A stretch of 64,000 bases of DNA from an uncultured virus (IMG/VR IMGVR_UViG_3300010352_001897) (IMGVR_UViG_3300010352_001897), one strand, 5' to 3'; shown: positions 8,962 to 32,007, numbered from the stretch's first letter. Made by a program: numbers and translations. The notes: generated by a model not told the origin, from the letters alone.

Positions 8962-9112
8962 GTTAATTAGTATTATTGCTGATTTTAATATAATTGAGTG
9001 ATTCTTTATTTATTGAGTGCCCAGGGGATGATTTAATGGGATTGAATTTGAAGGTGCATTTAGTATAGAGACTCCGTTTTGTCAAGAGGGATTTTGTCTA
9101 GAATTTTCTACT

Positions 9113-9141
9113 TTGACAGATGGGTTTGTTTTGCTTACATT
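9113..9141 (+). promoter_or_regulatory. sigma70-type early promoter TTGACA-N17-TACATT (representative of roughly 30 in 8.2-32 kb)
   Basis: same consensus, often preceded by TACC, at e.g. 10536, 10811, 12704, 17248, 18964, 22263. Confidence 0.85.
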
Positions 9142-9147
9142 GATCTT

Positions 9148-9502
9148 GTCGAAAGGTTGGGAATGTCGAGATTCTCCAACTACACCTAGCTAACTTTCGT
9201 TAGGTTCGGCTATGACGAAAAGGAATGTTGGTGGGCCTTTAGTCTAAAATATTCCCCAACAGTGGTCCTACCAGATTTCAGTGTCTAGAAGTAGGGGGGC
9301 TTAGACCATAGGTAAAGTACTGAATATCTCTCACAAGTTGCTAGTGGGATGAACTCGCAGGGACTTCTAAACTCAAATTTAGATGTCCAAGTAATACTTG
9401 CGGATCAAATGTGGTCCGAAAGACCCCTTTGAGAGGCAAGTGAATAGATTGGTACCCTATTCTAGGAGAAACCTCTTCAGCCACCAACTGGAGAGGTTTT
9501 CT
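9148..9502 (+). ncRNA. putative structured ncRNA cassette A (~355 nt)
   Basis: consensus promoter, no plus-strand ORF of 60 aa or more, multiple hairpins, terminator 9467-9502. Confidence 0.6.
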
Positions 9503-9590
9503 GATTTTATACCTTGACAGACTTGTCGAATTGCCATACATTAGGGGAGTCAGGAAGAATTTTCTTCAACAAATTCACAGGAGGTTGCTC

Positions 9591-9824
9591 ATGTATGTTT
9601 TGATGAATAAGACAGGCACTGCTGTTTTCCTGGGATATTCCCCAACTGGCCGTATTCGTTGGGGGCAATTGGATGAATTGAAGGAGGAGCCTACTGGATT
9701 TCAGTTGACGATCTTCAAGGATCCTTCTTTGCAGATTGAAGTAATGAAAAATCAAGATTGTCCTGTGTTGGTGGTTGCCGAACCCTTGGAGAAGCTATTG
9801 GCTTTCATTGGAGGTGAACAGTGA
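9591..9824 (+). CDS. hypothetical early protein
   Basis: GGAGGT SD before ATG 9591. Confidence 0.75.
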   Translation: MYVLMNKTGTAVFLGYSPTGRIRWGQLDELKEEPTGFQLTIFKDPSLQIEVMKNQDCPVLVVAEPLEKLLAFIGGEQ

Positions 9825-10222
9825 GCCCTTTGACATTGACCTTTTTGGTGGGATTTATTGGGATTGCTTTCATCTATGCGGTGTATTCTCTCAACCTTCT
9901 CATCAAGAATGGACAGGTTCCATTGGAGAAGTCAAAAGTGATTGACCATTCCAAGGTGAATCCTGCCCCAAATCCTTTGATGGATGCTCGACTGGTGTTT
10001 GGATGTACTGCAATGGTTAGGGACTTTATTCCATGGGGTAATGGTGAGATTCATATTACTCACTGGATGGGGCCTGTTGACATCATTGGATACGATAATT
10101 CCAAGAAGTTGTATATGACATCTGTTGGGGAGTTCTGTGATGCTCGTCCTTTAACTGAAGAAGAGAAGACCAAACATGCTCGTAATTGGGCTCACGCATT
10201 GAAAATTGTTGAGGAGCACTAA
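9821..10222 (+). CDS. hypothetical protein with N-terminal TM helix
   Basis: GGAGGT SD, GTGA overlap. Confidence 0.75.
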   Translation: MSPLTLTFLVGFIGIAFIYAVYSLNLLIKNGQVPLEKSKVIDHSKVNPAPNPLMDARLVFGCTAMVRDFIPWGNGEIHITHWMGPVDIIGYDNSKKLYMTSVGEFCDARPLTEEEKTKHARNWAHALKIVEEH

Positions 10223-10223
10223 T

Positions 10224-10385
10224 ATGGGCTACAAGGAACTTTTCAAGAAGTACTTTGAGATGGGCTATTCGGGGCGTGAAGCTCAGAGGATGGCGAATCT
10301 TCAATTGAGGGATCGAGAGAAGATAAATAGAATGACTCAAAGGGAATTGGTAAAACACTGTATCAATAAGCCCTTGTGTATGTAA
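10224..10385 (+). CDS. small hypothetical protein (53 aa, MGYKELFKK..)
   Basis: GAGGAG SD; below ORF-track cutoff. Confidence 0.6.
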   Translation: MGYKELFKKYFEMGYSGREAQRMANLQLRDREKINRMTQRELVKHCINKPLCM

Positions 10386-10570
10386 GTCTTGGATGTTTAA
10401 TTCGTTGAGTGCGTAGATGGTCTCTATAGGCGGAATGACGAATTTTCGTTATTCCTTTCTATAGTCAACTTGAATAATGCATTTAGTATAGAGACTCCGT
10501 TTTGTCAAGAGGGAATTTGTCTAGAATTTTCCACCTTGACAGGGGACAATTCCTTACTTACATTGCTCTT

Positions 10571-10750
10571 ACCGAGACAGCACAAACATATTGGCCAGTA
10601 GAGAGACTGACCAGTGGAAAGGTTCCCGCGAGGATCTTTTAGATAATGTTTTGGGACATCTAGAGTAATCATTATTGCACGATTTCCGACGCAATTGATT
10701 GGTAATGATGGTTGGGAAGGCCCCTCTGAAGATAGAGGGGTCTTTTCTTT
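10571..10750 (+). ncRNA. putative ncRNA cassette B (~180 nt)
   Basis: promoter 10536-10564, no ORF, terminator 10717-10750. Confidence 0.55.
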
Positions 10751-10845
10751 TTGCCCTATTTTTAAGGCACTATCTAACGTATATGAGTTTAATGATCTAA
10801 AAATAGTACTTTGACAGCGTCGCGATTTTTGCTTACATTGATAGT

Positions 10846-11250
10846 GTCGAGAAGGGTAACTCATTGAGCAATCTCTAAACTATCTACCCAACTAAAATTG
10901 GATGATAGGGTTACCTAGTAAACCGATACTCGCTTCCGAGTGAAGTCCTAGTAGGTAGAAGGATAGCTTGAACGGACCTCTCGAATGTTGCAATCCCGCC
11001 TGATAGACGTAATCTATCACAAATTTGACCCTCATGTAGGGTTTGACATACGGAACACTAGACACGAAAACAATCCTGATCTATGTGTTGACCATTCTTC
11101 CCACCGAGTTGTAAACTAGGCAGGTATACGAACGGGAAGAACATTTTGAAAATGAGCCTAGTAACCATTCTGGGAAAAGTTGGCAAGGGATGGGCAAGGA
11201 AGTAATGGGCCAGCTTAAAACCCTCTCTGGGAAACTAGGGAGGGTTTTCT
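10846..11250 (+). ncRNA. putative structured ncRNA cassette C (~405 nt)
   Basis: promoter 10811-10839, no long ORF, hairpins such as TGATAGA/TCTATCA and TTCTTCCC/GGGAAGAA, terminator 11217-11250. Confidence 0.6.
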
Positions 11251-11330
11251 GATTTTATACCTTGACAGACTTGTCGAATTGCCATACATTAGGTGTACGA
11301 AGAATTTTCTTCAAACCCAAAGAGGAACCA

Positions 11331-11699
11331 ATGGAAATCCCAAAGACACTGTTCACAATTGCAACGGGATCTCGGCTTGGAGCCCACACCACTTGCATTG
11401 CCGCCACCATTGAGCAGTTGATCCAGGAGGTTGACAGTACTCTGGCCTGTGATGAGCAAATGCTTCGTGAAATCATTGAGGAATACAACGAGACTGCAAC
11501 TGCCATGAATCGACCCTTGTACCAAGGGCTTGACAGTGACTTTAGCTTTGCTTTCATTGTCAAGAATGACCCTCGCACCGACATGGGTGGCTGGGGTTGG
11601 GCATGGGAGTGGGTTGATTCCCTAGGGCGTGATGACAACGCATATTTGAACATTTCCGTCCATGTCTGGACTGGACACTACTTCAACACCGAGGGATAG
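11331..11699 (+). CDS. hypothetical early protein
   Basis: GAGGA SD before ATG 11331. Confidence 0.75.
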   Translation: MEIPKTLFTIATGSRLGAHTTCIAATIEQLIQEVDSTLACDEQMLREIIEEYNETATAMNRPLYQGLDSDFSFAFIVKNDPRTDMGGWGWAWEWVDSLGRDDNAYLNISVHVWTGHYFNTEG

Positions 11700-11768
11700 T
11701 ACCTTGACAAAGTTCTGATTTTGTTTACTTTAGGGTAAAGAGAATCATCTCTAACCAAGGAACGAAAA

Positions 11769-12182: not shown

Positions 12183-12209
12183 TAACTAGAATTTTCTAGG
12201 GAGGAAATC

Positions 12210-12494: not shown

Positions 12495-12533
12495 TAACCT
12501 TTACAGTCGTCTCGATTTGAGTTACATTGTGGG

Positions 12534-12698: not shown

Positions 12699-12738
12699 GT
12701 ACCTTGACAGCCCCTAGCTTTTTGCTTACATTGATAGG

Positions 12739-13942: not shown

Positions 13943-14488
13943 CTATTGGGGTCCTTTTTGTAATGTTCCTAAATTAGCAAACTTCCCATGAAGTTCTCGT
14001 AGTTTTTCATTTCGATGAACAATTGCTTGCTCCAATCCGTCATTCGTATGTGGAAATAATTTACAATATCTTTTTCCATTGAAAAATATTTTAACTTGAT
14101 AATGTATGTTTTTGTAATAATGTGAATTATATGTCAATATGTTTTTGTATCCAGTTTTATTATTTCTTTGAGCATTGACATTCATTTGATTTTGGCTATT
14201 TGTGGCCAATCTTAAATTATGTACATTATTGTTTAGTTTATTATTGTCAATATGATCTATTTGAATTTCGTTTGGAATTTCATATAACTTATGATAAATC
14301 TGATATAATATTCTATGAACACAGTATTCTTTTCCTCCTAAAACTACTTTCAAATATCCCTTCTTATTACATCCTGCTAAACTATCCTTTTTTATAACAC
14401 CTCTTGAGATTGACCAATATAGTTGTCCATTTTTCTCATAAAAATATTTGTAAATTTCGGGCAGTGTTAATTGTTTTGTCAATTTCAT
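13943..14488 (-). CDS. HNH homing endonuclease
   Basis: HRILY..IDHIDNNKLNNNVHNLR..N; AT-rich insert. Confidence 0.9.
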   Translation of the reverse strand: MKLTKQLTLPEIYKYFYEKNGQLYWSISRGVIKKDSLAGCNKKGYLKVVLGGKEYCVHRILYQIYHKLYEIPNEIQIDHIDNNKLNNNVHNLRLATNSQNQMNVNAQRNNKTGYKNILTYNSHYYKNIHYQVKIFFNGKRYCKLFPHTNDGLEQAIVHRNEKLRELHGKFANLGTLQKGPQ

Positions 14489-14670
14489 CTAAGAATAATA
14501 ACAAATTATTCTTAGCTCCATTTTTTACTAGATGCTCAGTTCTCCTGAAAGTTTTTTAAGTTTCTTCATTGACTACCTTTACAAACTTCGTTCTTTGGCT
14601 TACATTGGTAGTATGAAAGGCGAGGTAAGGTACCGAGCCGAAGAGCAAACCAAAGAAAAAGGAAACTACC

Positions 14671-15114
14671 ATGTCGGATACCAACACCACCACCACCGAA
14701 ACCGTCAAGCCCCTCACCGTGAAGGAACTGGCCGCGAAGCGGAAGGCCATTCGCGAAGAGGCCAAGTCCATCACCTCCGCCCTGACCAAGAGGCGCGAAG
14801 ATGCCAAGGCCGAGGAGCAGGAAGCGGCCAAGAACCTCCTCAAGGAGATCGGTGAACTGGGCCAGTCCACCGTCGTGGTGGGCGAGGGCGACAAGGCCAT
14901 GACCTTGACCCTGGAAGAGGCTCTGGTCACCGGCAAGGTCACCACCATCACCGTGAACACTGCCGAAGGCCCCAAGGAACGCGCCCACACCGCCTTCATG
15001 GACGCCGCTCGCGTCGAGTCCCTTCGCAAGCTCCTGGTCCGCGCCAAGAAGATCCTCGCCAACGAGGAGATCCGCCCCAAGGCCAACCCGAAGGACAACG
15101 AGGCTTCCGCCTAA
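14671..15114 (+). CDS. hypothetical early protein, copy 1 (strongly GC3-biased codons)
   Basis: AAGGA SD, promoter and terminator; near-identical to 17912-18355. Confidence 0.85.
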   Translation: MSDTNTTTTETVKPLTVKELAAKRKAIREEAKSITSALTKRREDAKAEEQEAAKNLLKEIGELGQSTVVVGEGDKAMTLTLEEALVTGKVTTITVNTAEGPKERAHTAFMDAARVESLRKLLVRAKKILANEEIRPKANPKDNEASA

Positions 15115-15300
15115 AGTCCTCCGGTCGCACTTTTGAAGGAAGGAATCCAAAGGGGTTCCTTCCTTTTTTTGTTGTGTTTTTGAAAATCATGTAAAAATAA
15201 AAGCTAAAATTGGTTTTTAATAAAAAAATACCCTTGACTGATTTGTCTTTATTCCCTACTTTAAGTGTACATCATCCTTAATATTGAGGGGAGAACATTC

Positions 15301-16080
15301 ATGGCTTTTTCGACCCATTCTGATCTCTTTGAGGAACTTAATAACGGATGCGGACTCGTAAGGAAGAATCAGATCATTACCATTCTCTACACCCAATACC
15401 TTCCGCTTGCCCGTCGCGTGTCCTATATGTACAAGTCGCTGGGTTTCGATCTTGCAATGTCTTGTTGTCGGGTTGGATTGCTCAACGCAGTGGAAAAGTA
15501 CGATCTCACCTTTGGTGTTGATTTTGCCTACTTTGCAAAGTATCACATGAGATCGGTATGTCAAAAGGAAATGCGAAACGATCGGAATATTCATATTCCT
15601 GCCAATATCATGGCCATTATTGAAAAGTTGATTCGGGAAGGAGTTTTCTACAAGGATTCTGAAGAATTGACTACTCAGCAATTGGCTGACCGAGAAGAAT
15701 ACGGTGAAATGTACCGTAATGTATACTACACTCGCAGTGAAGAGAATACTGGCAGTGAAGATAATGAAGGCACTTATAGTGTCTTTGACGCTGTTGAGCA
15801 GGGGACCTTTGAATCTTCTGATTCGTTGACCTACATGAAGGAATTGAATTCGACGTTGGAGCGTTTGATTAATCGCCTCCCTGACATTGAACGTACCGTG
15901 GTCATCCACTCGATTGGTTTTAATAATGCCGACGAACTTGGAATTCGGGACATTGGTAAGATCATCGGTAAGTCCCACCAAACGGTCGTCAATCGCTACG
16001 CTAAGGCCCTGGGGATGCTCAGGGAATTGATGTTGGAGGAAGAGGAAGACTTGTTTGACAATATTGAAATGGGGAAATAA
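15301..16080 (+). CDS. sigma-70 family RNA polymerase sigma factor-like protein
   Basis: region 2-like GLLNAVEKYD..GVDFAYFAKYHMR and region 4 HTH IRDIGKIIGKSHQTV..AL..LR; GGGGAG SD before ATG 15301. Confidence 0.85.
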   Translation: MAFSTHSDLFEELNNGCGLVRKNQIITILYTQYLPLARRVSYMYKSLGFDLAMSCCRVGLLNAVEKYDLTFGVDFAYFAKYHMRSVCQKEMRNDRNIHIPANIMAIIEKLIREGVFYKDSEELTTQQLADREEYGEMYRNVYYTRSEENTGSEDNEGTYSVFDAVEQGTFESSDSLTYMKELNSTLERLINRLPDIERTVVIHSIGFNNADELGIRDIGKIIGKSHQTVVNRYAKALGMLRELMLEEEEDLFDNIEMGK

Positions 16081-16400
16081 TGAATCCTTACTTTTCGCCT
16101 CTATTCGGAATCACCTTTTTCGGAAACATGACTCCTACTGAAGCAATCATTGATATTGTTACAATGACCAGAGGACCTTTGACTGTGGAACTTCCCATAG
16201 TTATTGGAATTGGCTATGCTGAAGGAAAGTATCATTGTAGTGCGGTGGCGGAAAATGGGGACACTCTGGACATTACCAAAGATTCGATGTCGGATTGTTT
16301 GATTGAAGTTGGGGCTTTTTGTACGCTGAGGCTTGCGTACCTCATGGCAGATAAGTTTAAGGTGGCCCTTGAAATTGAAGCCTTGACATCGGGCGTATAA
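16080..16400 (+). CDS. hypothetical protein
   Basis: TAATG coupling to sigma gene. Confidence 0.7.
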   Translation: MNPYFSPLFGITFFGNMTPTEAIIDIVTMTRGPLTVELPIVIGIGYAEGKYHCSAVAENGDTLDITKDSMSDCLIEVGAFCTLRLAYLMADKFKVALEIEALTSGV

Positions 16401-16468: not shown

Positions 16469-16747
16469 GGGAGTGTAGCTCAGTTGGTAGATGCAGTGGT
16501 CTTTAATAATAAGAGCACTGAATTAGAAATAATTCATGTGAATCCTGTCAAATTCGGGGAAACTCCAGAAATGGACAATCCCGAGCCAAGCCTAGTATAT
16601 AGGAAGGTGTAGAGACTAGACGGCAGGGGTCTGAACAGGTAGTGCTGAAGATCAAGGGATAGTCCAGACTACAACATGAAAATGGTCACAGTAATGTGAA
16701 GTAGTAAGTTAAGCCACGGGTCGTGGGTTCGAGTCCCACCACTCCCA
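16469..16747 (+). tRNA. tRNA-Lys(UUU) interrupted by a group I intron
   Basis: acceptor GGGAGTG/CACTCCC, T-arm GTGGG-TTCGAGT-CCCAC, anticodon stem GTGGT/GCCAC; spliced loop CTT|TTAA; CCA not encoded. Confidence 0.85.
16504..16708 (+). ncRNA. group I intron (IC3-like, 205 nt, no ORF)
   Basis: P AAATTCGGGGAA, Q AATCCCGAGC, R GTAGAGACTAGA, S AAGGGATAGTCC; follows U, ends in G. Confidence 0.88.
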
Positions 16748-16851
16748 CTAACCCTAGCTCAGAAATGGGCTAGGGTTTTTTGTACCTTTACAAAAATCCA
16801 GTAGGTGCTTACTTTAGTACTGAAGGTAATTCACCTAACCAAGGAGATACA

Positions 16852-16965
16852 ATGTTAAGACTTGTGATCCATCTGGTGGTTGTTCTGATCCTCTGTCGTA
16901 TCTTTGGGCCAGTCCTTGGGCTGTTGATCTACATTGTCATGCGAATGATTTTTAGAGGGTTCTAA
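16852..16965 (+). CDS. small hydrophobic membrane protein (37 aa)
   Basis: promoter, AAGGAG SD, MLRLVIHLVVVLILCRIFGPVLGLLIYIVMRMIFRGF. Confidence 0.65.
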   Translation: MLRLVIHLVVVLILCRIFGPVLGLLIYIVMRMIFRGF

Positions 16966-17282
16966 GATCAAGGTGTTTCGAGAGGTCACAGGTGCAGATC
17001 TTCTCAATGCCAAACTGTTCACTGAAGGAATCATTACCCAACTTACCCCGTCGCAAATTTTCCAATTGAGTGAGAAGGGAATCTATGTGAAACGGGTTTA
17101 AGTGTGAGTGAGTGAGTGCGTACCACTCCCCATTCGGCCAGGGGACCTATCAATGTATGGTAGGTTCCTTTTTTCGTCAATGTATGAAAAGCATTTAGTA
17201 TAGACTCTCCAATATGTCAAGAGGGAAAACGTCTAGAATTTCCTACCTTGACGAGATCTTCTTTTCAGCTTACATTGATATT

Positions 17283-17682
17283 GTCGAGAGGAAAGTAAAG
17301 ATCGAAATCTAGAATCCTAGGGCTTCCCTCAGGGCGGCTCAGATCTGGCCTAGACGTAGATGGTGAATGATGATCCACTGGGAAACACTCATACCACAAT
17401 CTAACTCGCAAAATGAAGTTAATGGGACTCTTATATCTTTAGGAGTTTCAAAAAAGGGTGAACTAATGCCAGGGCCGATAAGACTGGAAACTGAATCGAC
17501 CGTCCTCAAGTAGAATCTTCCAGGATTTGAAAAGGGAAAACAGCGCCCACCCTATGGCTGGTTAACTTCGACTCCTTGAGTAACGCTATCGAGACTCAAC
17601 AGAGTATAAAAGAGATAGCATAGAAAGAAAACCATCTCAACTAGAGAGCCTCCTGGGATCGCAACCTGGGAGGCTCTTTTTG
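17283..17682 (+). ncRNA. putative structured ncRNA cassette F (~400 nt)
   Basis: promoter 17248-17276, no ORF, many hairpins, strong terminator 17643-17682. Confidence 0.6.
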
Positions 17683-17911
17683 TTTTTTCTCTCGATTTAA
17701 TCTATCTGGATTAGAACGCGAACAGCTAGGTAAATATTTCCTACAGTCCAGCTATTATAGATTTTCAAATTTTTCTTTCTCAGTACCTTTACAAACTTCA
17801 TTCTTTGGCTTACATTGATAGTACAAGGGCAACGGTGACCGAATGATCCGAAGCCCCCCAGAGACAGTCCTGAATAATTCAGGGAAGCTCTGATTTGAAA
17901 AGGAAACTACC

Positions 17912-18355
17912 ATGTCGGATACCAACACCACCACCACCGAAACCGTCAAGCCCCTCACCGTGAAGGAACTGGCCGCGAAGCGGAAGGCCATTCGCGAAGA
18001 GGCCAAGTCCATCACCTCCGCCCTGACCAAGAGGCGCGAAGATGCCAAGGCCGAGGAGCAGGAAGCGGCCAAGAACCTCCTCAAGGAGATCGGTGAACTG
18101 GGCCAGTCCACCGTCGTGGTGGGCGAGGGCGACAAGGCCATGACCTTGACCCTGGAAGAGGCTCTGGTCACCGGCAAGGTCACCACCATCACCGTGAACA
18201 CTGCCGAAGGCCCCAAGGAACGCGCCCACACTGCCTTCATGGACGCCGCTCGCGTCGAGTCCCTTCGCAAGCTCCTGGTCCGCGCCAAGAAGATCCTCGC
18301 CAATGAGGAGATTCGCCCCAAGGCCAACCCGAAGGACGACAAGGCTTCCGCCTAA
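17912..18355 (+). CDS. hypothetical early protein, copy 2
   Basis: near-identical duplicate of 14671-15114. Confidence 0.85.
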   Translation: MSDTNTTTTETVKPLTVKELAAKRKAIREEAKSITSALTKRREDAKAEEQEAAKNLLKEIGELGQSTVVVGEGDKAMTLTLEEALVTGKVTTITVNTAEGPKERAHTAFMDAARVESLRKLLVRAKKILANEEIRPKANPKDDKASA

Positions 18356-18483
18356 AGTCCTCCGGTCGCACTCTTGAAGGAAGGAATCCAAAGGGGGTCC
18401 TTCCTTTTTTTGTACCTTGACGAAAACCTTAAATCGGTCTACATTAGACTTGTAGGCAATGATCTTAACCTTGGAGTCACAGT

Positions 18484-18875: not shown

Positions 18876-19031
18876 TGTAGGAAAAGCATTTAGCATATAC
18901 TCTCCAATCTGTCAAGAGAGAAAACGTCTAGAATTTTTAGATGGAAATAATGAATTTCGTACCTTGACAGATTAGAAGTTTCTGCATACATTACATACAG
19001 ACAAGGGAATGTTTCCCTAGAGGACCATGAC

Positions 19032-19914: not shown

Positions 19915-20148
19915 CAGTCGTTCGAGAAATACTTACGTTGGATGGAAAGGCTAGTCTTAATGGCTAGTCTTTTTTCGGTAAGGTAGATTTTTGCATTTAG
20001 TATAGAGTCTCTAGTTTGTCAAGAGAGAAATTATCTAGAAAGATTCTACAGTAATCAACAAAAATACTACCTTGACACTATAGACGTTTTTGCATACATT
20101 AGTAATATCCAAAGGGCAATTCAGCCCAACCTCACAGAAGGATCCACA

Positions 20149-20763
20149 ATGCGACAGAATATCACTCAGGACGGACTTGTCAAGCTCTTCGAAAGTCTGG
20201 ATGGAACGGGCCACAAGTACATCTACATCGGGATGCGGACCACTCCCAGCCTCACCAAGAAGCATCGCGTGACAGGAGAATCCTTGGGAGTGGCTCTCAA
20301 TTGCCTCGGCATCGTGAAGGAATCCGAAGGCGTCTACTCCATCGGACTCATTTACGAAAATGCGGTCAACAACAAGCTGGAACGTGAAGGCTTCGAGCGA
20401 AACTTCGAGGTTGGAGAACTGAACTGGGGCAAGTGGGTCCCTGGATCGAAGATCTTTTTGACTCACACCTCCAAGGGCGAAACCGAAGAAAAGCTCTACG
20501 TTCGGCTCTATATGTACACGGACAACAAACTGTGCAAGGAATGTCGGAAAACCGTCTACTACAAGGTTCTCGCCGACGGGTCCGAAGTGGAAATGTCCCC
20601 TACCGAACTGGAAACCGCAAAGGGCTTTTTGCCCATCGAAAAGGAAAAGGAAGCACTGGTCGAAGGTGCCTCCCTGGATGCGGCCAAGCCCATCGTGAAC
20701 AGTGTCAAGGTGGAGAACTTCACCTATGTCAAAATCGGTGGAGTGGAATACACTGTGAAGTAA
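20149..20763 (+). CDS. hypothetical early protein
   Basis: promoter, AAGGA SD, GC3-biased codons. Confidence 0.8.
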   Translation: MRQNITQDGLVKLFESLDGTGHKYIYIGMRTTPSLTKKHRVTGESLGVALNCLGIVKESEGVYSIGLIYENAVNNKLEREGFERNFEVGELNWGKWVPGSKIFLTHTSKGETEEKLYVRLYMYTDNKLCKECRKTVYYKVLADGSEVEMSPTELETAKGFLPIEKEKEALVEGASLDAAKPIVNSVKVENFTYVKIGGVEYTVK

Positions 20764-20847: not shown

Positions 20848-21054
20848 ATGGAAAAGAAAACCAAAATCCAGAAGATGCGAATTCCGTTGCCAAAGCAACG
20901 ATGTCAAGCATTCAAAGATCGTACCAAGTACGATAGAAAAGAGTCAAAGAAGGGTGACCGCAACAGTCATCCTTCTTTTTTTGTCCATAATTTTCAATTT
21001 AGTATAGACTCTCCAATCTGTCAAGAGAGAAAACGTCTAGAATTTTCTACTTGA
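20848..21054 (+). CDS. small basic ArfA-like protein; intrinsic terminator lies inside the CDS
   Basis: AAGGAG SD; RIPLPKQR..FKDRTKYDRK; terminator 20948-20982 precedes the stop. Confidence 0.5.
   Translation: MEKKTKIQKMRIPLPKQRCQAFKDRTKYDRKESKKGDRNSHPSFFVHNFQFSIDSPICQERKRLEFST
20948..20982 (+). terminator. intrinsic terminator within ArfA-like CDS
   Basis: AAGAAGGGTGAC-loop-GTCATCCTTCTT plus T-tract. Confidence 0.85.
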
Positions 21055-21098: not shown

Positions 21099-21455
21099 AT
21101 GGCTGAATGGGAAGGAACCGAAGCAGAATCGTTCTCTGAAATGGTTGAATGCTTTGAGGAGGTTTATTATGATGAAGATGGTGAAGTAGATGAAGCCTAT
21201 GACAGTCGTGGACGTTGCAAGGGGTCTAATGGGATCCGAGTACTTTCTACGGAAAGGATTGATCTTCTTAAGGGTCGCTATGAGAAGGCAAAATCGGCCT
21301 CCGTCAAAGACACGATCCACTGTCCTACCTGCAACAAGCCCCATGTAAAGACAACCTACCATAAGATCTTTTGCGGGAAGGTGAAGTGTAAAGATACTTA
21401 CTGGAATACTGTAGATGATGTCAGAAGAGATCGAGCCAAGAAATATAAAAAATAA
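21099..21455 (+). CDS. zinc-finger hypothetical protein
   Basis: GGAGGT SD; CPTC and FCGKVKC. Confidence 0.75.
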   Translation: MAEWEGTEAESFSEMVECFEEVYYDEDGEVDEAYDSRGRCKGSNGIRVLSTERIDLLKGRYEKAKSASVKDTIHCPTCNKPHVKTTYHKIFCGKVKCKDTYWNTVDDVRRDRAKKYKK

Positions 21456-21696: not shown

Positions 21697-21930
21697 ATGG
21701 TCGGGTGTTTTAATAACTCTCCTGAGGATCAACATTTCCAGAATCAATTGGAATCCTATTTGGATTCTTGCGAGCATCATCCTAGATGCCCCTGCAATGA
21801 GGATTATGAGGGAGAACGGGAATACGATGAAGATGGCCAAGTGATTGAACCTGAATGTACTTGCGACTCCGAAAGGGAATCTGATTTTTGCGATGCACAG
21901 TTGGACCGATTAGATTTCATTGGGGACTGA
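21697..21930 (+). CDS. small acidic Cys-rich protein
   Basis: 77-aa ORF in operon. Confidence 0.55.
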   Translation: MVGCFNNSPEDQHFQNQLESYLDSCEHHPRCPCNEDYEGEREYDEDGQVIEPECTCDSERESDFCDAQLDRLDFIGD

Positions 21931-22183: not shown

Positions 22184-22297
22184 GTTTTTACTAGTTTGTA
22201 ATGTGTAATTTAGTATAGAGAGTCCAATCTGTCAAGGGAGAAAACGTCTAGAATTTTCTACCTTGACGGCCTTCGATTTTCGGCTTACATTAATCAT

Positions 22298-22708
22298 ACC
22301 ACGGAGAACAGAAGGTTGCAAACTTCCAAGTATCACTCAGAAAGTCGAGAGTCTGAGGGTGGGAAGGATGTATTGTCTATTTGGCTGGACAGGCCCCTTT
22401 CAGCGGGGCCGGGAGTGGGTTCGATCCCCATAGCATCTGATCTATCGAGTCCTGTAATTTGCTGAGGTTTTAATCCTCACTCGTTTAGAAAAATGTACTG
22501 TACCGACGATCAATTTAGGTTGATCCGATCAAATCCGACCATTGGGTTAGTTAAGGAGTGTCATTCGGTGGACATTCCCCAAAAGTACTCGCCCCTAGAA
22601 CTAACACTGCCGGGATTTGGCGAAAGGCAGGACGAACGAAAGTTCTGTAAAAATCCTCCCAATATCGTTGGACTAAGAAGCCCTTCGGAGAAATCCGGAG
22701 GGTTTTTT
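22298..22708 (+). ncRNA. putative structured ncRNA cassette G (~410 nt) containing a tRNA-like domain
   Basis: promoter from 22263, hairpins incl. GAAC-GAAA-GTTC, terminator 22678-22708. Confidence 0.6.
22366..22439 (+). tRNA. atypical tRNA-like element (Glu-like body, enlarged anticodon arm)
   Basis: D-stem GTCT/GGAC, GGCCCC-TTTCAGC-GGGGCC, T-arm GTGGG-TTCGATC-CCCAT, imperfect acceptor stem, no CCA. Confidence 0.55.
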
Positions 22709-23113: not shown

Positions 23114-23155
23114 TCTCAAGGCTCTTTCAAACGAGCCCTCAGGGATCCCTGAGGG

Positions 23156-24558
23156 TTCGTAGCTGCTTCAATAAATCTACGCAAAACTAGGCAAACCTGA
23201 GCAAAACTACTTGGCATTTTTAATAGAAATATCTAATAAATATTAATAGTAATGGAAAAGATGCGTAGTTATAGGCTTGAGCTAAAGCTCAATCAAAGTC
23301 AAAGGATTCTTTGCGCTAAGAGTGCAGGAACTTCTCGCTTTGCCTATAATTGGAAACTACGCAATCTCATTGAAAAATACGAAAAAGCTAAAACAGAAGC
23401 AAATGGAAGTAAGGTCAAATGTAACTTTGGCAATGCGATAGCATGGCACAAAGATTGGGTAAATCTCAAGGCTGAACTTCCTTGGATTCGTGAAACATCA
23501 AAGTGCTGTGGGCAAGAGTCGCTACGCGACTTGCAGATAGCATTTCAGCGATTCTTCTCAAAGAAGTCAGGTTATCCCAAGTTCAAGAAACGTGGACAAA
23601 GAGATTCATTTAGGCTGACAGGTTCAGTTTACATCGCATCTGACTATGTTCAACTTCCAAATTTAGAAAAGATTAGACTCAAGGAAAAGAACTACTCGAT
23701 TATTGAAGGTAAATGCTTGCTTTCACAAGCAACAGTTTCAAGACAGTGTGATAGATGGTATGTTTCATTTCTTCTACCAGAAACAGTAGAAGACCCTAAA
23801 TTTGCCACCTTGAATGAAATTGAAGAATCCAATATTCTAGGTGTTGACTTAGGTATCAAAGAGTTAGTAATCACCAGTGAAGGTGAGACATTCGAGAATC
23901 CTAAAGCATACAAGAAACATTTGGTGAAACTCAAAAGGTATCAAAGAATGGTTTCTCGTAGAGTTATAGGAAGTAATAACAAGAAGAAAGCAATAACTAA
24001 GTTGTCGCGAGTACATAAGCGAGTTGCGGACATCCGCAATGACACTGTGCATAAACTGACAAGTTCTTTGGTGAAAGCCAAACCAAAGATTATAGTTATT
24101 GAAACCTTAAAGCCAAAGAACATGTCCAAGAATCATAAACTGGCTTCCGCTGTCTTAGATTCTTCCTTTGGTAAGATTAAGGATACTTTAAAATATAAGT
24201 GTAGTTGGACAGGAATCCATTTAATCATGGCTCCAACCTTTTACGCTTCTTCTAAGTATTGTTCAAACTGTGGACATAAACATAATGAATTAAAACTGTC
24301 AGATAGAGAATGGACTTGTAGCTCTTGTGGAACACATCTTGATAGAGATGTGAATGCCGCAAAGAACTTACAATATCTAGGTCTTTGGATGATAGACAAA
24401 CATTCACCTTCGGGTGAATCTAGCGTGAGTTCCACGCAAAGTTACGCTTGTGGAGATGAAAGGTTACAGTTCCTTTTGGAACAGTGTTCGTCTATGAAAC
24501 AAGAATTCAAATCACAAAATAATGTCTTGCATAGTTTTGCATAGATTTGTTAGAACGG
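23156..24558 (+). mobile_element. non-autonomous IS607-like element (tnpB only), copy 1
   Basis: left end GG|TTCGTAGCTGC and right end GATTTGTTAGAACGG| shared with 45084-46526; subterminal GCAAAACTA/TAGTTTTGC repeats; no tnpA. Confidence 0.85.
23252..24544 (+). CDS. tnpB: RNA-guided endonuclease TnpB
   Basis: HTH RFAYNW, RuvC GVDLG / VIETL / DRDVNAA intact, CSNC-CSSC zinc finger. Confidence 0.95.
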   Translation: MEKMRSYRLELKLNQSQRILCAKSAGTSRFAYNWKLRNLIEKYEKAKTEANGSKVKCNFGNAIAWHKDWVNLKAELPWIRETSKCCGQESLRDLQIAFQRFFSKKSGYPKFKKRGQRDSFRLTGSVYIASDYVQLPNLEKIRLKEKNYSIIEGKCLLSQATVSRQCDRWYVSFLLPETVEDPKFATLNEIEESNILGVDLGIKELVITSEGETFENPKAYKKHLVKLKRYQRMVSRRVIGSNNKKKAITKLSRVHKRVADIRNDTVHKLTSSLVKAKPKIIVIETLKPKNMSKNHKLASAVLDSSFGKIKDTLKYKCSWTGIHLIMAPTFYASSKYCSNCGHKHNELKLSDREWTCSSCGTHLDRDVNAAKNLQYLGLWMIDKHSPSGESSVSSTQSYACGDERLQFLLEQCSSMKQEFKSQNNVLHSFA

Positions 24559-24742
24559 TTCAATTTTCAATTTGCAAATTGCGAATTTAGTATATAGAGT
24601 TTGATCTGTCAAGGGAGAAAACGTCTAGAATTTCCTACCTTGACAATATCTTCTTTTCAGCATACATTGATATTGTCAAGAGGACATAGAGCCTCTTCCA
24701 AAAACCCAACCAAACAAACGTCAAATAGAAAGGAGAGACGAA

Positions 24743-25815: not shown

Positions 25816-26142
25816 ATGCGACAGACTGAAATGGGACCCTCAAACATTTCTGGAATCTTCCTTGGAAATCGCACCTCTTTGGTTCGGGCATTTCCAGATT
25901 GCAAAGTCATCTTCCATAAGAACTACCACTATGTTTCTGGCTTTGTCGGGTTTCCGTCTGGTAAGTGGGTGTACTTTTGTTCCTTCGATGATCGCTATGG
26001 GGATTTCAAATATTACGCACGAACAGCGACCAACGAAAAGGACTTCAATGGTGGTCGAAACCATCCAACCCGTAGCAACAAGAAAGAAGAATTGTTTGCT
26101 CTTATCAAGGAACTTTCAACCCAACATCATCGCCCCACTTGA
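25816..26142 (+). CDS. conserved phage hypothetical protein
   Basis: promoter, leader hairpin, AGGAG SD; HYVSGF..VYF..RTA..KDF.GGRN. Confidence 0.8.
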   Translation: MRQTEMGPSNISGIFLGNRTSLVRAFPDCKVIFHKNYHYVSGFVGFPSGKWVYFCSFDDRYGDFKYYARTATNEKDFNGGRNHPTRSNKKEELFALIKELSTQHHRPT

Positions 26143-26280: not shown

Positions 26281-26443
26281 AGTAGTATTTTCATTTAGTA
26301 TAGAGACTCTGATCTGTCAAGGGAGAAAATTTCTAAAACAATTTCCAGTATTTTTGCCTAACTCCCTTGACAGTTAAGATCCTACACTGTAACTTTCTCT
26401 AAGACATAAGGGAATGTTCCCTAGTCAAAATGGAGTCGAGACA

Positions 26444-27004
26444 ATGAACATTGCAAAAGATCTTTCCGACGTTGCGGCACGTTTGAAGTGTCCGGAAGTC
26501 AAGGATAAACAAACTGTGGAAATTGTCTGTAGATTGGTCACTCGTTTTGATCGGTTGGAAACGTCCGAAGCCTATTCCCTCATTCTGGAACAGATTCCGG
26601 GTGCGATCAATCGTTGGAAACAAGGGCTTGCTCACAATCTTTCTTCCGCCCTATGGTCGTCAGGAAGATTCGCCCTCCTGAATGCTTGCACCACCCTGAG
26701 AAATTATCGGCAAAAGACAGAAGGTACTTTTTCCCTTGATGCTTCCACGGATGAAACTTCCAACCTACACGAAACAATCGCGGGAAAATTGGAAACGATT
26801 GATTGGAAAAATGCTTTTGATTTCGTTTTCATTAATGCGGGATTCACTGATCGCGAAAAACAAATCTTTCTCGGATTGAAAGACGGAAAGACTTTGGAAC
26901 AACTGGGGAATGAATTCGGTGTTTCTCGTCAAGCGATCCACACTACCAAAACGGCAATCGAAACCAAAACCAAACGAATCAAAAGTTTGGTATTGGGAAT
27001 GTAA
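26444..27004 (+). CDS. small sigma-factor-like protein with region-4 HTH
   Basis: FSLDA..NLHETI, FTDREKQIF..GKTLEQLGNEFGVSRQAI; GGAG SD. Confidence 0.75.
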   Translation: MNIAKDLSDVAARLKCPEVKDKQTVEIVCRLVTRFDRLETSEAYSLILEQIPGAINRWKQGLAHNLSSALWSSGRFALLNACTTLRNYRQKTEGTFSLDASTDETSNLHETIAGKLETIDWKNAFDFVFINAGFTDREKQIFLGLKDGKTLEQLGNEFGVSRQAIHTTKTAIETKTKRIKSLVLGM

Positions 27005-27223
27005 TCAATTGGGATTATCAATTAATCCCTTTTTCAGTATTAAAAAAGGATCTATAGGTCCTTTTTTGTTTCCTACAATATCCTTGCATTTAGTATAGAC
27101 TCTTCGATCTGTCAAGGGAGAAAATTTCTAAAACTATTTTAAGATTGTCCCTTGAAACTTAGAACACTCAAACGTATCTTCATTACAGACATAAGGCAAT
27201 GTTGCCTAAACATAGAGGATCAA

Positions 27224-27412: not shown

Positions 27413-27607
27413 TATGAAAGAGGGAGCATTCCCTCTTTTTTTGTAGGTATTAAAAGACATTTAGTATAGACTCTTCGATCTGTCAAGGGAGAAAATTTCT
27501 AAAACTATTTTATGAAAATGTACTTGAACCCTTGACCTTCACTATAGTTAGGCGTATATTTGTTTATGTCGATAGGCAATGTTGCCTAGACAAACGAAAG
27601 TCCTAAT

Positions 27608-27820: not shown

Positions 27821-27890
27821 AAAGAAAATTCAAAATCTTTAAATAGAGAAGGGAAGGAAACTTCCCTTTTTGTTTTGTTAGTATTGAGTA

Positions 27891-28409
27891 ATGACCAAAA
27901 AGGCAAATACCATTTCATTAAAAGAATTGAAAAAATATTTCTACATCGATGATGAATATAGATTACGTTGGAAAATAAAACCCTCAGCCAAAGTATATAT
28001 TGGAGATTTAGCGGGAGTATTAACGAAACAGAATGGAATACGAATTTATATTAAAGGGAAAAATTACCAAGCCCATAGATTAATATACCAAATGCACCAT
28101 AATCTCGAAACATTAAATGAATTAATTGAGATTGATCATATTGATGTGAATAGGATTAACAATAATCCGAATAATTTAAGAGAATGTACAACGCAACAAA
28201 ATGATTTCAATAGACTGAAATATAAAAATCGTACAACAAATTATAAAGGCGTTTTCAAAAGCAATTCAATTAAAAATCCATTTAGAGCTAGAATATGCCA
28301 TAATGGAGTAAACTATTCACTTGGTTCATTTTCAAATGAATTAGATGCCCACAATGCATATTGCAATAAAGCCAAAGAACTATATGGTGAATTTTGGAAT
28401 CCGGGATAA
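27891..28409 (+). CDS. HNH-AP2 homing endonuclease
   Basis: AHRLIY..IDHIDVNRINNNPNNLR; YKGV..LGSF..AHNAY..LYGEF. Confidence 0.92.
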   Translation: MTKKANTISLKELKKYFYIDDEYRLRWKIKPSAKVYIGDLAGVLTKQNGIRIYIKGKNYQAHRLIYQMHHNLETLNELIEIDHIDVNRINNNPNNLRECTTQQNDFNRLKYKNRTTNYKGVFKSNSIKNPFRARICHNGVNYSLGSFSNELDAHNAYCNKAKELYGEFWNPG

Positions 28410-28561
28410 GTTTAGCATATAGTCTTCGTATTGTCAAGGGAGAAATCTTCTAAAATTATCTTACACGATTACTTGAAACATGTAGATGTTCCTATAATGA
28501 TTTTGTATATTATGTTCAGACTTGAAGGAATGTTTCCTTAAGTCAGATTAGGGATCATCTC

Positions 28562-28783: not shown

Positions 28784-28988
28784 CCCACATACACAAAAGC
28801 CCTCACAATTGAGGGTTTTTGTTTGTGTTGATTAGTACGACATTTAGTATAGACTCTCCAATCTGTCAAGGGAGAAAATGTCTAGAATTATTTTTAAGAA
28901 AATCTACTCAACATCTTGACCTTCACTGTAGTTAAATGTATACTTGTTTATGTCAGCGGGCAATGTTGCCCAGACAAGGAAACCAACC

Positions 28989-29357
28989 ATGTATTTCTCC
29001 ATGTCGAACACCAAAGATCCCAAAGTCGTCAACCTGTCCATCCGGGATATTTCCCTCGAAATGGCCATGGACATCATTTCCGTTCTCAATGAGGGAAAGA
29101 TCGTTGCTCTTCCCTTCGAGAATTCCTACGAAAACATTCAAGTACAGATGCATCCAAAAACCGAATCTGCCTACACATACGAAAACGAAAATGGCATTAT
29201 GAGGTACAACAAAATCAAGTGCATCAAGGATTTCCGCGAAATCACTGGACTGGGACTCTACGAAAGTAAGATTTTCACGGAATATTCCCCAGCTACGATT
29301 CAGAGACATATGATTCCTAAGCTGGAAAAAGTTGGGATTTTCGTCCAGCCTGTCTAA
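28989..29357 (+). CDS. protein with ribosomal L7/L12 C-terminal-like domain
   Basis: NKIKCIKDFREITGLGLYESKIFTE resembles the L12 KI.VIK.VRE.TGLGLKEAK motif; AAGGA SD. Confidence 0.75.
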   Translation: MYFSMSNTKDPKVVNLSIRDISLEMAMDIISVLNEGKIVALPFENSYENIQVQMHPKTESAYTYENENGIMRYNKIKCIKDFREITGLGLYESKIFTEYSPATIQRHMIPKLEKVGIFVQPV

Positions 29358-29566
29358 TCAAAGACATTCTCAAAGACCCTTAAGTGGGTCTTTTTTATAC
29401 CACATATGAAACAACATTTAGTATAGACTCTCCAATCTGTCAAGAGAGAAAATGTCTAGAATTATTTTTAACTTTCTTTATCTCAGCCCTTGACTAGAAC
29501 CATCATTTTTGATACATTACTCTAAGTGATAGGGAATGTTCCCTTCCAAACCTAGAGAGTAGCACA

Positions 29567-29812
29567 ATGGGAAAGAGCAAGCGTCCGACTCTGGATAAGT
29601 TCAGCCGTAAGGCCATCAAGGTGCAGGACATTCGCAGGCGCGAACTTCAGCGAGCGAACGAGGAGCCCATCCACTACGCTTTCCGGAATCGCCAACTTCG
29701 CAACCTTCAGAAGGGCGTCACATTGGCCGAATTGGTCTTTGTGCTGGTCTTTTTCTCGGGACTTGGCCTTGTGGGCTATGTCGCCTTCCACTTCCTTTCC
29801 AAGGTTTGGTGA
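29567..29812 (+). CDS. prepilin-like protein lacking a globular head
   Basis: QKG|VTLAELVFVLV class III signal motif, ORF ends 31 aa after cleavage site. Confidence 0.65.
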   Translation: MGKSKRPTLDKFSRKAIKVQDIRRRELQRANEEPIHYAFRNRQLRNLQKGVTLAELVFVLVFFSGLGLVGYVAFHFLSKVW

Positions 29813-29822
29813 GGGCTAATAA

Positions 29823-30044
29823 ATGCCTATGAGCTTCCCTAACATGGAATCCCTGCGAGCAAGGACCAAACAAAGAGGGTTTCGGGAACCTTTGGAAGGT
29901 GAGTCCGAAGCGGACTACAGGACCTCTTTTGCGGACTTCATGGTCAAGGTGGATATTGTGGAATCATCCGAAATCAGATCGGGCAAGGGTTGGGATGAGC
30001 AGGATCCTTCCGAATTGGTTGGACACTTACTCTTTTCCAGGTGA
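29823..30044 (+). CDS. hypothetical protein
   Basis: GAGGG SD, followed by terminator. Confidence 0.7.
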   Translation: MPMSFPNMESLRARTKQRGFREPLEGESEADYRTSFADFMVKVDIVESSEIRSGKGWDEQDPSELVGHLLFSR

Positions 30045-30260
30045 TTAAGAGGGAGAAGAAATTCTCCCTTTCTTTTTTGTTTAGGCCATCCTTGATTTAG
30101 TATAGACTCTCCAATCTGTCAAGAGGGAAAACGTCTAGAATTATTTTACTTTAATCTCATAAAATAGTAGACAGAAGGAAAATCACTCAGTATCTTTGTT
30201 TACATGAACCAATGAAGAATAGTTCTTCGGTTCTAAACCAACAAACAAGGACAAGCGACA

Positions 30261-30668
30261 ATGAGAAAGACTCGCAAAGACCTGATCGCAGAACTGGAAG
30301 CCCAAAAGGCCGCATTGGAACTGCAAATCAAGAATCTCAAGCGAAATCCACTCTTTCAGATTCGATTCAATAACGGAAACGTCTTCCGTGAACTGGACCT
30401 GTCCAAGTACAATTCCGATGAGATTGCCCTTCTGAAGGCTTACAAGTACCTCTTCGAGAACATGAACAAGAGTCAGGAAGAGATCGGAAGGGCGGTTCGT
30501 CAGTATTTCCAACATGGTGAAAAGGTCAGTACCGTTACCATCAACAAAAAATGGAACGTGGTCTCTCTGGTCAACAAGTATTCTTTCACCCAGTTTACCC
30601 GTGCCGTTAGCTGGTCCATGCACTTGGAGCATAAGGCAATGATGAACGTATTTTCCAACCTCAAGTAA
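30261..30668 (+). CDS. hypothetical early protein
   Basis: AAGGA SD, terminator. Confidence 0.75.
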   Translation: MRKTRKDLIAELEAQKAALELQIKNLKRNPLFQIRFNNGNVFRELDLSKYNSDEIALLKAYKYLFENMNKSQEEIGRAVRQYFQHGEKVSTVTINKKWNVVSLVNKYSFTQFTRAVSWSMHLEHKAMMNVFSNLK

Positions 30669-30837
30669 TAACCTTGAGGGAAGAATGGGAGGGAGTCCCT
30701 CCCTTTTTTCTTACTCACACCTAAAGTAATTTAGTATAGACTCTCCAATCTGTCAAGAGGGAAAACGTCTAAAACTATTTTCGTTCATCTTCACTATAGA
30801 TCTTGACATCATAGATCATTAAACGTATATTAATTAC

Positions 30838-31023
30838 ATGAAAAAGCTGATCCTCTTGATTGTGCTCTTGGTTGGTTATCTGTACGCTTCGGCAATCGCC
30901 AAAGGGTTTAAAGATTGCTTCCAGGAATCTTTCAACCAATCTACACAACAGATTGGAAAAGATCTCAACAAGGGAATCACCAAGCCAATCAAAAACACTA
31001 TCGCTCCAACTAAGGGTAAGTAA
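30838..31023 (+). CDS. small exported/membrane protein
   Basis: MKK plus hydrophobic signal, directly after promoter. Confidence 0.65.
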   Translation: MKKLILLIVLLVGYLYASAIAKGFKDCFQESFNQSTQQIGKDLNKGITKPIKNTIAPTKGK

Positions 31024-31024
31024 A

Positions 31025-31486
31025 ATGATTCGGAATGAATATCTTAACACCAAGTCCGGTTTCACTCCCAATTCCTCGGAAGATCGGAAATTCAATCACC
31101 AATTGCACATTGAATATTATTCCCAGTTCATTACCGAACAAACCAAATCATTGGCAAGAATCCTACTCAATCGCTTTCCCTACATGCTCTGCAATAATAA
31201 GGGTGAAAACAAAATCGAAGATTCTCTGAATTGCATTCAATTGAGACATTGGAATATTCTTGGAAATACTTTGACTATTGGGAACATGAATACTAAGAAA
31301 TGGAAGGAATGCGAATACCTTAACTCTCATTCGGAAAATCCAGGTAAACTCTACATTTCAGCGGCTGAAAAAGTATGCACTCTTAAGAATGCCGCAAGAA
31401 TGATTCTGCTCGAAAAGGGTTGGACCGAACATTGGGAATTGAACAAGTTCGGAAACGTGGAATGCTATCTGGTGAAAGGAAATTAA
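31025..31486 (+). CDS. hypothetical protein
   Basis: start moved to ATG 31025. Confidence 0.7.
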   Translation: MIRNEYLNTKSGFTPNSSEDRKFNHQLHIEYYSQFITEQTKSLARILLNRFPYMLCNNKGENKIEDSLNCIQLRHWNILGNTLTIGNMNTKKWKECEYLNSHSENPGKLYISAAEKVCTLKNAARMILLEKGWTEHWELNKFGNVECYLVKGN

Positions 31487-31488
31487 AA

Positions 31489-31782
31489 ATGAACTTTGAA
31501 AAACTTACCGTCGAAGAATTTACCACGTTGATTGTGGCTTGTTCCTATTCATCCATTTTACTATGTGCAAAGATCAATGATCGACTGATCCACATTTCCG
31601 CCCAAGATGCCCTAAATACCCTCAAAACAAAAGAGTATTCCAAATATGGAGAATTAAGCCTTCCGACGTTCTATTCTGAACACGGTGAATATAAGCCACT
31701 GTATGGGGTTTCTGGTCGCTGGAGATATACTTTCATTGACGGATTCTTTATTCGCACTGGAAGAGAAGGAAGGTGCTCTTAA
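31489..31782 (+). CDS. hypothetical protein
   Basis: AAGGA SD before MNFEKL. Confidence 0.65.
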   Translation: MNFEKLTVEEFTTLIVACSYSSILLCAKINDRLIHISAQDALNTLKTKEYSKYGELSLPTFYSEHGEYKPLYGVSGRWRYTFIDGFFIRTGREGRCS

Positions 31783-32007
31783 TAGGAATTCCAATCACAA
31801 TCCCTAGTATGGCAAAAGAATCACTATGATTCTTTTTATGTTAAAAACCATCATTTACCATAGAGAGTCTGAACTGTCAAGGGAGAAATTGTCTAGAATT
31901 ATTTTCAACTATTTTCATCTAGAGCCTTGACTTATGTTTCTTTTTAGCCTACATTAGTAACAGAACAAGGGCAAGATTGCCCACCAAACCAAACACGGAG
32001 TAGTATC

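Follow-up and report, generated by a model that had tools for sequence, protein, structure and literature searches.

A conserved 50-bp element with promoter-like anatomy facing backwards recurs at cassette junctions in the early-gene island of an uncultured T4-like phage

The 64,000-nt stretch of DNA from an uncultured virus analyzed here (IMG/VR IMGVR_UViG_3300010352_001897; hereafter the window) contains an early-gene island in which a 50-bp element recurs 17 times in one orientation. Our preferred explanation, which we put forward tentatively, is that a composite intergenic control module, in an early-cassette array of the promoter-early stem-loop (PeSL) type, has this element as its conserved core, that the element is promoter-like but faces backwards, and that its copies serve as crossover points. 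It would act as a double-stranded control site, recognized by RNA polymerase with the help of a phage factor, or else by a DNA-binding protein dedicated to it. The family, a PeSL-type array, is known; new are a dedicated, deeply conserved and island-restricted box with a backward promoter anatomy and the two sigma genes that accompany it.

Copies of the element in the window and in relatives

Positions of the 50-bp box were numbered 1 to 50 on the + strand. With up to 3 mismatches allowed, the core pattern matched the window 17 times, always on the + strand, compared to 0.10 matches on average, and at most 1, in 100 dinucleotide-preserving shuffles. Copies 1 to 17 occupy positions 9058..9107, 10481..10530, 17193..17242, 18888..18937, 19995..20044, 20997..21046, 22208..22257, 24585..24634, 26293..26342, 27088..27137, 27459..27508, 28410..28459, 28842..28891, 29416..29465, 30095..30144, 30729..30778 and 31853..31902, which bears out the 17 same-orientation copies reported in an earlier note on this DNA. 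A profile built from them regained all 17 at E <= 7e-14 in a scan of the 64-kb window. Apart from these copies and a weak, inverted and degenerate one on the - strand at 33333..33383 (profile E 3.4e-5), nothing in the 64 kb scored below E 0.2. In the window the element is restricted to the island, as the earlier note had observed; the weak inverted match lies at the right edge of the island.

When metagenomes were scanned with a degenerate pattern, 36 loci on 10 contigs came up, and 9 of these loci were compared with the window. Four of these (L083, L109, L111, L112) were 99.98-100% identical to it, and L085 was identical apart from an end departing at 21183 that looks like a chimeric contig end; the remaining loci of the scan were assigned to the same phage only by identical copy spacing. 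The other four compared loci (L084, L088, L108, L110) represent relatives whose gene DNA is 66-75% identical to that of the window. The profile scan, of the position-weight type that the earlier note had suggested, found 13 further copies in these relatives. They are 69-92% identical to their window counterparts (77-92% in blastn), and the element is thus better kept than the surrounding genes.

A more distant lineage is represented by G002:C18, a 212,780-bp contig of a related T4-like jumbo phage with a tail sheath 59% identical to that of the window. It encodes gp23, gp20, gp32, a gp44 clamp-loader homolog, a RecA-family protein (UvsX-like by position) and a family-B DNA polymerase. Its G+C content is 0.29 overall and rises to 0.36-0.37 in an island at about 144-160 kb (8-kb bins), which holds homologs of the window gene 20149-20763 and of the window sigma factor, the two sigma homologs being only 27% identical. 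This island carries 8 diverged copies of the element, 8/8 in gene orientation, whereas block A, the 13-mer of the element, occurs at chance level in the rest of the contig (23 hits with <=2 mismatches versus 19-32 in shuffles). The contig was binned in a metagenome-assembled genome labelled Candidatus Omnitrophota, which is either a mis-binning or a hint at the host, and it carries four TnpB copies of 72-85% identity.

Other collections added no further carriers. In IMG/VR the exact pattern gave one hit (L001), judged to be chance, and the right-half pattern gave none; a relaxed pattern of the invariant positions returned 40 single hits, none with the element profile at E <= 1; and the species-genome collection yielded 0 hits.

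Conserved core and backward promoter anatomy

Across all lineages ATTTAGTATAGAC, a CAAG/CTAG box at a fixed distance and GAATTATTTT are kept. In the 30 copies of the window and its four nearer relatives (five contigs), 17 of the 50 positions are invariant, namely T2-A5, T9, A10, C26-G29, A34, T40-A43, A45 and A46, and positions 12-22 are the loosest, with an information content of 0.3-1.6 bits. The spacing between blocks A and B never varies. In the window, block A occurs as the variants ATTTAGCATAT in copy 4 and ATTTACCATAG in copy 17; copies 10 and 11 have their first 46 bases in common (identity 1.00 over the 52 bases compared), and copy 12 is the most diverged. In G002:C18 the 13-mer is exact in 5/8 copies, with one change in two copies and two changes in one; CAAG or CTAG follows at exactly the same distance and GAATTATTTT is retained, while TCTAGA is lost and the right part is shifted by 3 nt, even between copies of this contig.

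Read on the minus strand, the element shows, in this order, an A/T-rich part (AAAATAATTC), the -35 box, which is CTTGACA, and a -10-like block of extended type (CTATACTAAAT); where this block stops, the repeat breaks off sharply on its left. In 30/30 copies the -35 box has CTTG, changes being confined to its last three bases; likewise, T, A and T of the TATACT hexamer (TAnnnT) are kept in 30/30 copies, with changes in the middle. The -35-like box also matches the promoter flavour of each lineage: it is TTGACA in the window and TTGCAA or TTGCCA in G002:C18, whose real promoters often use TTGCCA. Moreover, at three window junctions a canonical promoter directed leftward immediately adjoins the element on its left, at 17180->17152 (copy 3), 18875->18848 (copy 4) and 26280->26253, so that backward transcription from junctions is plausible in itself. 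ECF-type and sporulation-sigma-type readings of the motifs were also tried by eye, and none fitted the spacing.

Several observations weigh against a backward promoter. The TATACT hexamer is only 12 bp from the -35 box, a spacing that the earlier note had given correctly. An ordinary sigma-70 promoter has its hexamers 16-18 bp apart, with A at -11 and T at -7. In the alternative 17-bp register (minus strand TTGACA-N17-TAAATN) the motif reads TAAATT in 8/8 copies of G002:C18, but in the 30 window-family copies N, the key last base of the -10, is T in 9, C in 1 and G in 20. Scored with a matrix built from 35 promoters of the phage itself, the element reaches -7 to 14 bits compared to a median of 31, and is thus weak as a host-type promoter. 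Block A has 13 identical bases in lineages whose sigma homologs are only 27% identical, which exceeds what any sigma is known to need, and this conservation fits a dedicated DNA-binding protein equally well. The rest of the 212 kb lacks the element, which therefore does not represent a class of promoter in general use. At least 8 junctions of the island lead from terminator to promoter (for example 9468-9500 to 9514 and 11217-11248 to 11262) without it, indicating that it is an optional addition to a plain junction, inserted between terminator and promoter. Finally, the RNA data consist of unstranded contigs only, and leftward transcripts would have no evident product.

Composite junctions of the early-gene island

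The island is distinguished by a G+C content of 0.39-0.46 (~10 to 34 kb) versus 0.29-0.39 elsewhere in the window. It is made up of small + strand open reading frames (ORFs), mostly without family, and bears 35 strong host-type promoters on the + strand with the extended consensus tACCTTGACA-N17-TACATT. Two candidate trans-acting factors are encoded on its + strand, a sigma-70-family factor of 271 aa with regions 2-4 (15265..16080), the one with a homolog in G002:C18, and an ECF-like two-domain sigma factor of 196 aa (26414..27004). The latter lies downstream of copy 9, and a copy is present at the same junction in L110 and G002:C18. The proposal of the earlier note that the element binds a phage regulator or sigma factor stays the best class of explanation.

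Junctions with the element are ordered as follows: terminator hairpin and T-run, element, gap, -35/-10, often a small 5'-leader hairpin, gene. In the window, about 12-27 nt separate the stem end of the preceding terminator from the element, and the next promoter starts 4-27 nt past it. A TTGACA-like/TAnnnT promoter-like pair follows 17/17 copies, including those at 27152, 30168 and a weaker one at 28473, in agreement with the earlier claim that a promoter always comes after the element. How far a terminator usually precedes it, as was also claimed, depends on the rule applied: a terminator-like hairpin with T-run ending <=30 nt upstream was found for 7/17 copies by a strict automated rule, and by eye an upstream terminator was seen for about 13/17 copies, being absent at 9058, 24585 and 28410 and doubtful at 18888. 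At 24585 an insertion sequence takes this place, with the TnpB insertion 23154-24556 situated 28 nt upstream of copy 8, and the copy at 28410 abuts an HNH gene, beginning directly after its stop codon. Copy 1 is followed after 5 nt by the -35 of an early promoter; copy 2 has terminator 10432-10455 upstream and a promoter at 10536, and copy 3 is placed between its leftward promoter and a rightward one at 17248.

In G002:C18 a conserved terminator hairpin (GGAATAAT...ATTATTCC TTTT) precedes each copy at 17 nt, and the distance to the next promoter is irregular (about 0, 21, 22, 38, 55, 57 and 57 nt, by eye). As the promoter distance varies in this way while the terminator distance is kept (12-27 nt in the window, 17 nt from the T-run in G002:C18), the element is tied more closely to the preceding terminator than to the promoter that follows.

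Many island promoters are followed by a small conserved hairpin (AGGGAATGTTCCCT, AGGCAATGTTGCCT, GGGCAATGTTGCCC) in the 5' leader just before the ribosome site, with examples at 26409-26422, in the 27170s and in the 28950s and with compensating G/C changes between copies. It is possibly a site of RNA-level control or processing. Two further motif ideas were dropped because each concerned only 3 promoters: TATAGACGTTTT in promoter spacers and TGTCRAGAGG after the -10. A crude test for bidirectional terminators giving short hairpin RNAs found only 1/29 to be bidirectional, and no such claim is made.

Gain, loss and homogenisation of cassettes

Island content differs between relatives. Two units of the window that reach exactly from copy to copy, 28842->29416 (574 bp) and 30095->30729 (634 bp), are missing from L110, and the L110 alignments pass through a copy on both sides of each of them. 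The earlier view that the copies bound cassettes is thereby supported, since relatives gain or lose whole copy-to-copy units. Further differences between the window and L110 are not of this kind: they comprise the HNH gene 27891-28409, extra L110 DNA before two copies, and a change inside 30893-31487. The TnpB insertion 23154-24556, absent in relatives, is also an indel that is not copy-to-copy. In L108, the homolog of 25816-26142 is found beside the homolog of 21697-21930, whereas in the window the two are 4 kb apart and in the opposite order.

In near relatives from other studies, 6/15 joints shown end at or in a copy, an enrichment that is only suggestive because repeats interrupt contigs and alignments naturally stop at conserved boxes; stretches without cover, for example 27841-28507, were not counted as evidence. 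Joints in relatives were seen at copy 5 (19916->19994 and 20037->), copy 6 (21046->21108) and copy 11 (27511->28844). Joint 23153->24557 reflects the missing TnpB insertion in two runs, and in one run the HNH gene 13943-14488 is missing. PeSL cassettes can form mini-circles by recombination between flanking motifs; here, one contig from an RNA library shows a copy-to-copy joint, 22255->27508, which could be an assembly join.

For 12/12 window copies compared, a paralog from the same genome was closer than the positional counterpart in the relative, and neighboring copies were most alike, which indicates local concerted evolution. The sequence comparisons of cassettes and copies fit homologous recombination of the kind proposed for PeSL cassettes, and the RecA-family protein and gp32 of G002:C18 were counted in its favor. 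It appears that a dedicated element can form the seams between cassettes with no need of a site-specific recombinase.

In two cases an HNH gene stops precisely where a copy starts, once in the window (27891-28409, copy from 28410) and once in L108 (313-858, copy from 858); the two genes are only ~36% identical. A third HNH gene, 8431-8961, ends 97 nt before copy 1. HNH endonucleases may home next to the element.

Proposed function and alternatives

In the mechanism that we tentatively prefer, RNA polymerase would dock on the element as double-stranded DNA, carrying one of the two island-encoded sigma factors or a host sigma aided by a phage factor. It might then fire against the end of the preceding cassette, producing antisense or insulating transcription, or alternatively sit there as a block, while the separate rightward early promoter would express the next cassette. 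The near-identical copies would at the same time be crossover points at which homologous recombination, presumably that of the phage itself, leads to gain, loss and reordering of units. A bolder version, which we consider doubtful, has the island running a self-contained shut-off or insulation circuit: its own sigma would drive 17 backward promoters into the preceding terminator ends and so silence or insulate all early cassettes together, and the boxes would double as crossover points and HNH homing sites.

Among the alternatives, an operator is the most serious one, although we regard it as less probable than a factor-dependent backward promoter. The element would then be an oriented, stoperator-like site for a dedicated phage DNA-binding protein placed after terminators, which stops read-through or silences or activates the neighboring early promoter, and its promoter-like look would be inherited or incidental. 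This would account for the 13-base block that is identical across deep lineages, for conservation that covers non-promoter positions, and for an asymmetric site whose intergenic copies keep a fixed orientation relative to transcription and occupy only a subset of junctions. Multi-copy oriented repressor sites of this sort exist in Cluster A mycobacteriophages, as outlined in PMC9283540. In the 30 window-family copies, moreover, the next -35 lies 4-5 nt (8 copies), 13-14 nt (2 copies) or 23-27 nt (20 copies) past the element, distances about one helical turn apart, although the spacing test overstates significance because the copies are not independent. The element also has a moderate dyad centered on position 26, with 7.4/13 outer pairs, compared to 2.1-5.4 at 25 other centers. 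However, both the right arm of this dyad (TCTAGA) and the helical spacing are lost in G002:C18, and no candidate repressor can be named.

That the element has no regulatory role at all is improbable. It would then be a repeat of selfish or structural nature that gene conversion maintains, and would provide only homology for recombination or a target for free-standing HNH endonucleases, in keeping with the local concerted evolution, the copy-to-copy indels and the two HNH genes that end at position 1 of a copy. Most copies, however, have no endonuclease gene nearby. Furthermore, 17 invariant positions and a fixed spacing across lineages sharing 27-70% protein identity imply sequence-specific selection rather than mere homogenisation.

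In Mot-box promoters the box is located about 12 bp before a TAnnnT hexamer. The same geometry is found on the + strand of the element, where the TGTCAAG box precedes TAGAAT by 12 bp, and it might therefore be a forward, factor-dependent promoter of middle-mode type that restarts the next cassette. We rate this slightly below the preceding alternative. Its orientation toward the downstream gene and the T-rich stretch followed by A after TAGAAT in most copies are compatible with such a promoter, and PmSLs, which it would resemble, have been described in phage nt-1 (PMC4122927, in its account of that phage). Against it, TAGAAT is replaced by TAAAAC in 4/30 copies, TCTAGA is lost in G002:C18, the distance from the box to the right part differs by 3 nt within lineages as well as between them, and the + strand box varies at positions that a -35 would need.

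A pdif-like site, at which XerC/D or a phage tyrosine recombinase would shuffle cassettes, had been raised in the earlier note and is very unlikely. Cassettes bounded by copies are what it has in its favor, and on the minus strand block A resembles the XerD arm of E. coli dif (8/11 bases). The stretch corresponding to the dif center and XerC arm (positions 12-22) is, however, the least conserved part of the element; it is 11 bp long, and inner pairing amounts to 3/5 in the consensus and 2/5 in G002:C18. All copies are direct (17/17 in the window, 8/8 in G002:C18), as opposed to the opposite orientation of sites in dif/pdif modules. According to the description of such sites in PMC6449649, their 28 bp consist of two 11-bp arms, the inner parts of which are palindromic and conserved, around a center of 6 bp that varies, and modules lie between inverted sites; the element does not have this anatomy. 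In line with the earlier note, no recombinase was found in the window: about 95 window ORFs gave no Phage_integrase or resolvase hit, and no tyrosine or serine recombinase was found among them or in 179 of the 196 G002:C18 ORFs of >=110 aa, host XerC/D being outside this search.

Equally remote is a fold-back single-strand promoter (Frpo-like) or an attC-like structured recombination site, the former also proposed earlier: shuffled sequences fold as well as the element does when it is single-stranded (DNA fold z -0.99 to +0.99; three copies, both strands), RNAalifold returned 0 conserved pairs in 29 copies, there is no conserved imperfect hairpin, and the one junction that does fold well (17145-17290, DNA fold z = -3.66), which confirms the larger inverted repeat noted before at 17177-17278 as real, owes its fold to mirrored promoter sequences that most junctions lack and is thus specific to that junction type.

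The phage and further features of the window

A T4 gp15-like sheath stabiliser, a tail sheath and a T4-type terminase, the last in two pieces, mark the window as a segment from a large T4-like myovirus. Completeness is put at 4% for an 11-kb IMG/VR fragment that is identical to 52555-63752, suggesting a genome of roughly 280 kb, of which about 84 kb are covered here. The DNA of the window was found in activated-sludge and wastewater runs. Near and distant DNA searches of GenBank phages gave nothing close, only a 38-bp chance match, and GenBank phage proteins contained no match for the sigma or for one structural protein. Among 5.8 billion proteins the sigma has only 3 near relatives, and the DUF7227 protein belongs to a widespread family, of which no close relatives were returned.

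ATAAATA, which resembles the T4 late-promoter motif TATAAATA, lies 9-28 nt before late-gene start codons in 14/24 occurrences. Sites are at 41263, 44269(-), 44946, 44957(-), 45176, 46945, 47458, 50214, 58990(-), 59015, 61055(-), 61092, 63227 and 23236, and the motif also precedes both TnpB genes (23154-24556 and 45190-46512). The gap between ATAAATA and the ATG is as short as 5-9 nt in several cases, so that late mRNAs may be leaderless. A DUF7487 ORF interrupts the large terminase and leaves it as separate N- and C-terminal ORFs (53099-53998, 53985-55094, 55084-56268). An ADP-ribosyltransferase domain protein (ART-PolyVal; 43189-44256, - strand) is reminiscent of the enzymes with which T4 modifies host RNA polymerase. 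DUF7666 paralogs form a tandem array of three in the window (6761-8199) and of at least six in G002:C18.

Besides the sigma genes, the island encodes HNH endonucleases, the TnpB insertion and a group I intron. The intron (16493-16688; Rfam RF00028, 72.7 bits) is situated between ORFs 16080-16400 and 16780-16965 and is replaced by other sequence in relatives. A duplicated gene is present at 14556-15150 and 17755-18391, where 14671-15114 and 17912-18355 share identical Pfam scores and identical L088 matches. The cassette behind copy 7 and its promoter opens with a tRNA-like gene (22366-22439; 74 nt, anticodon UCA), called tRNA-SeC by ARAGORN. Recoding of stop codons by this tRNA was considered and rejected, as TGA ends 33/103 chosen ORFs and late ORFs do not lengthen.

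Comparison with known systems

PeSL cassettes are the accepted picture of accessory-gene shuffling in T4-type phages, with a recombining homology that is simply promoter plus terminator. Here a distinct 50-bp box is kept letter for letter in its core between lineages sharing 27-70% protein identity, and only in the early island. If it is indeed a factor-dependent counter-promoter or an operator, it would add a layer of co-ordinated control to cassette arrays and be a short, testable DNA target for the sigma factors that this uncultured T4-like lineage encodes.

A backward promoter just past a gene end is familiar from phage lambda, where the OOP antisense RNA is transcribed into the 3' end of the preceding gene. 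The placement is similar; OOP is a single locus with a mapped RNA, whereas the element occupies 17 loci known here from DNA alone.

Mot-box middle promoters and PmSLs of T4-type phages are mentioned in PMC4122927. Such promoters share with the element a box about 12 bp upstream of TAnnnT, whichever element strand is read. The box of the element is, however, the phage's own -35 sequence instead of TGCTT, and the phage carries its own sigma factors. With the dif/pdif modules of Acinetobacter plasmids, as presented in PMC6449649, the element has in common that short repeated sites bound gene modules moving between replicons; it is without their 28-bp arm-center-arm anatomy, palindromic inner arms and inverted site pairing, and no Xer recombinase was found in the ORFs searched. 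Stoperators of Cluster A mycobacteriophages likewise occur as many asymmetric intergenic copies whose orientation follows transcription. In the account of PMC9283540 they are 13-mers spread genome-wide in temperate phages and bound by the immunity repressor, whereas the element measures about 50 bp, is confined to one island of a lytic-type T4-like phage and has no known binder.

The closest likeness is to the PeSLs of T4-type phages. The island and the arrays portrayed by Arbiol et al. 2010 (PMC2839356) and Comeau et al. 2014 (PMC4122927) are both made of small early genes of unknown function in a plastic region of a T4-like genome, with a stem-loop terminator and then a host-type early promoter bounding each gene, so that terminator-promoter repeats stand between small ORFs. 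In both, relatives show insertions, deletions and reordering at the motifs, for which homologous recombination has been proposed as the driver. The element differs from the PeSLs of these reports in being a separate 50-bp box between terminator and promoter at 17 junctions, more conserved than either of them, with a promoter-like anatomy that points backwards and is kept in a relative with only 59% tail sheath identity.

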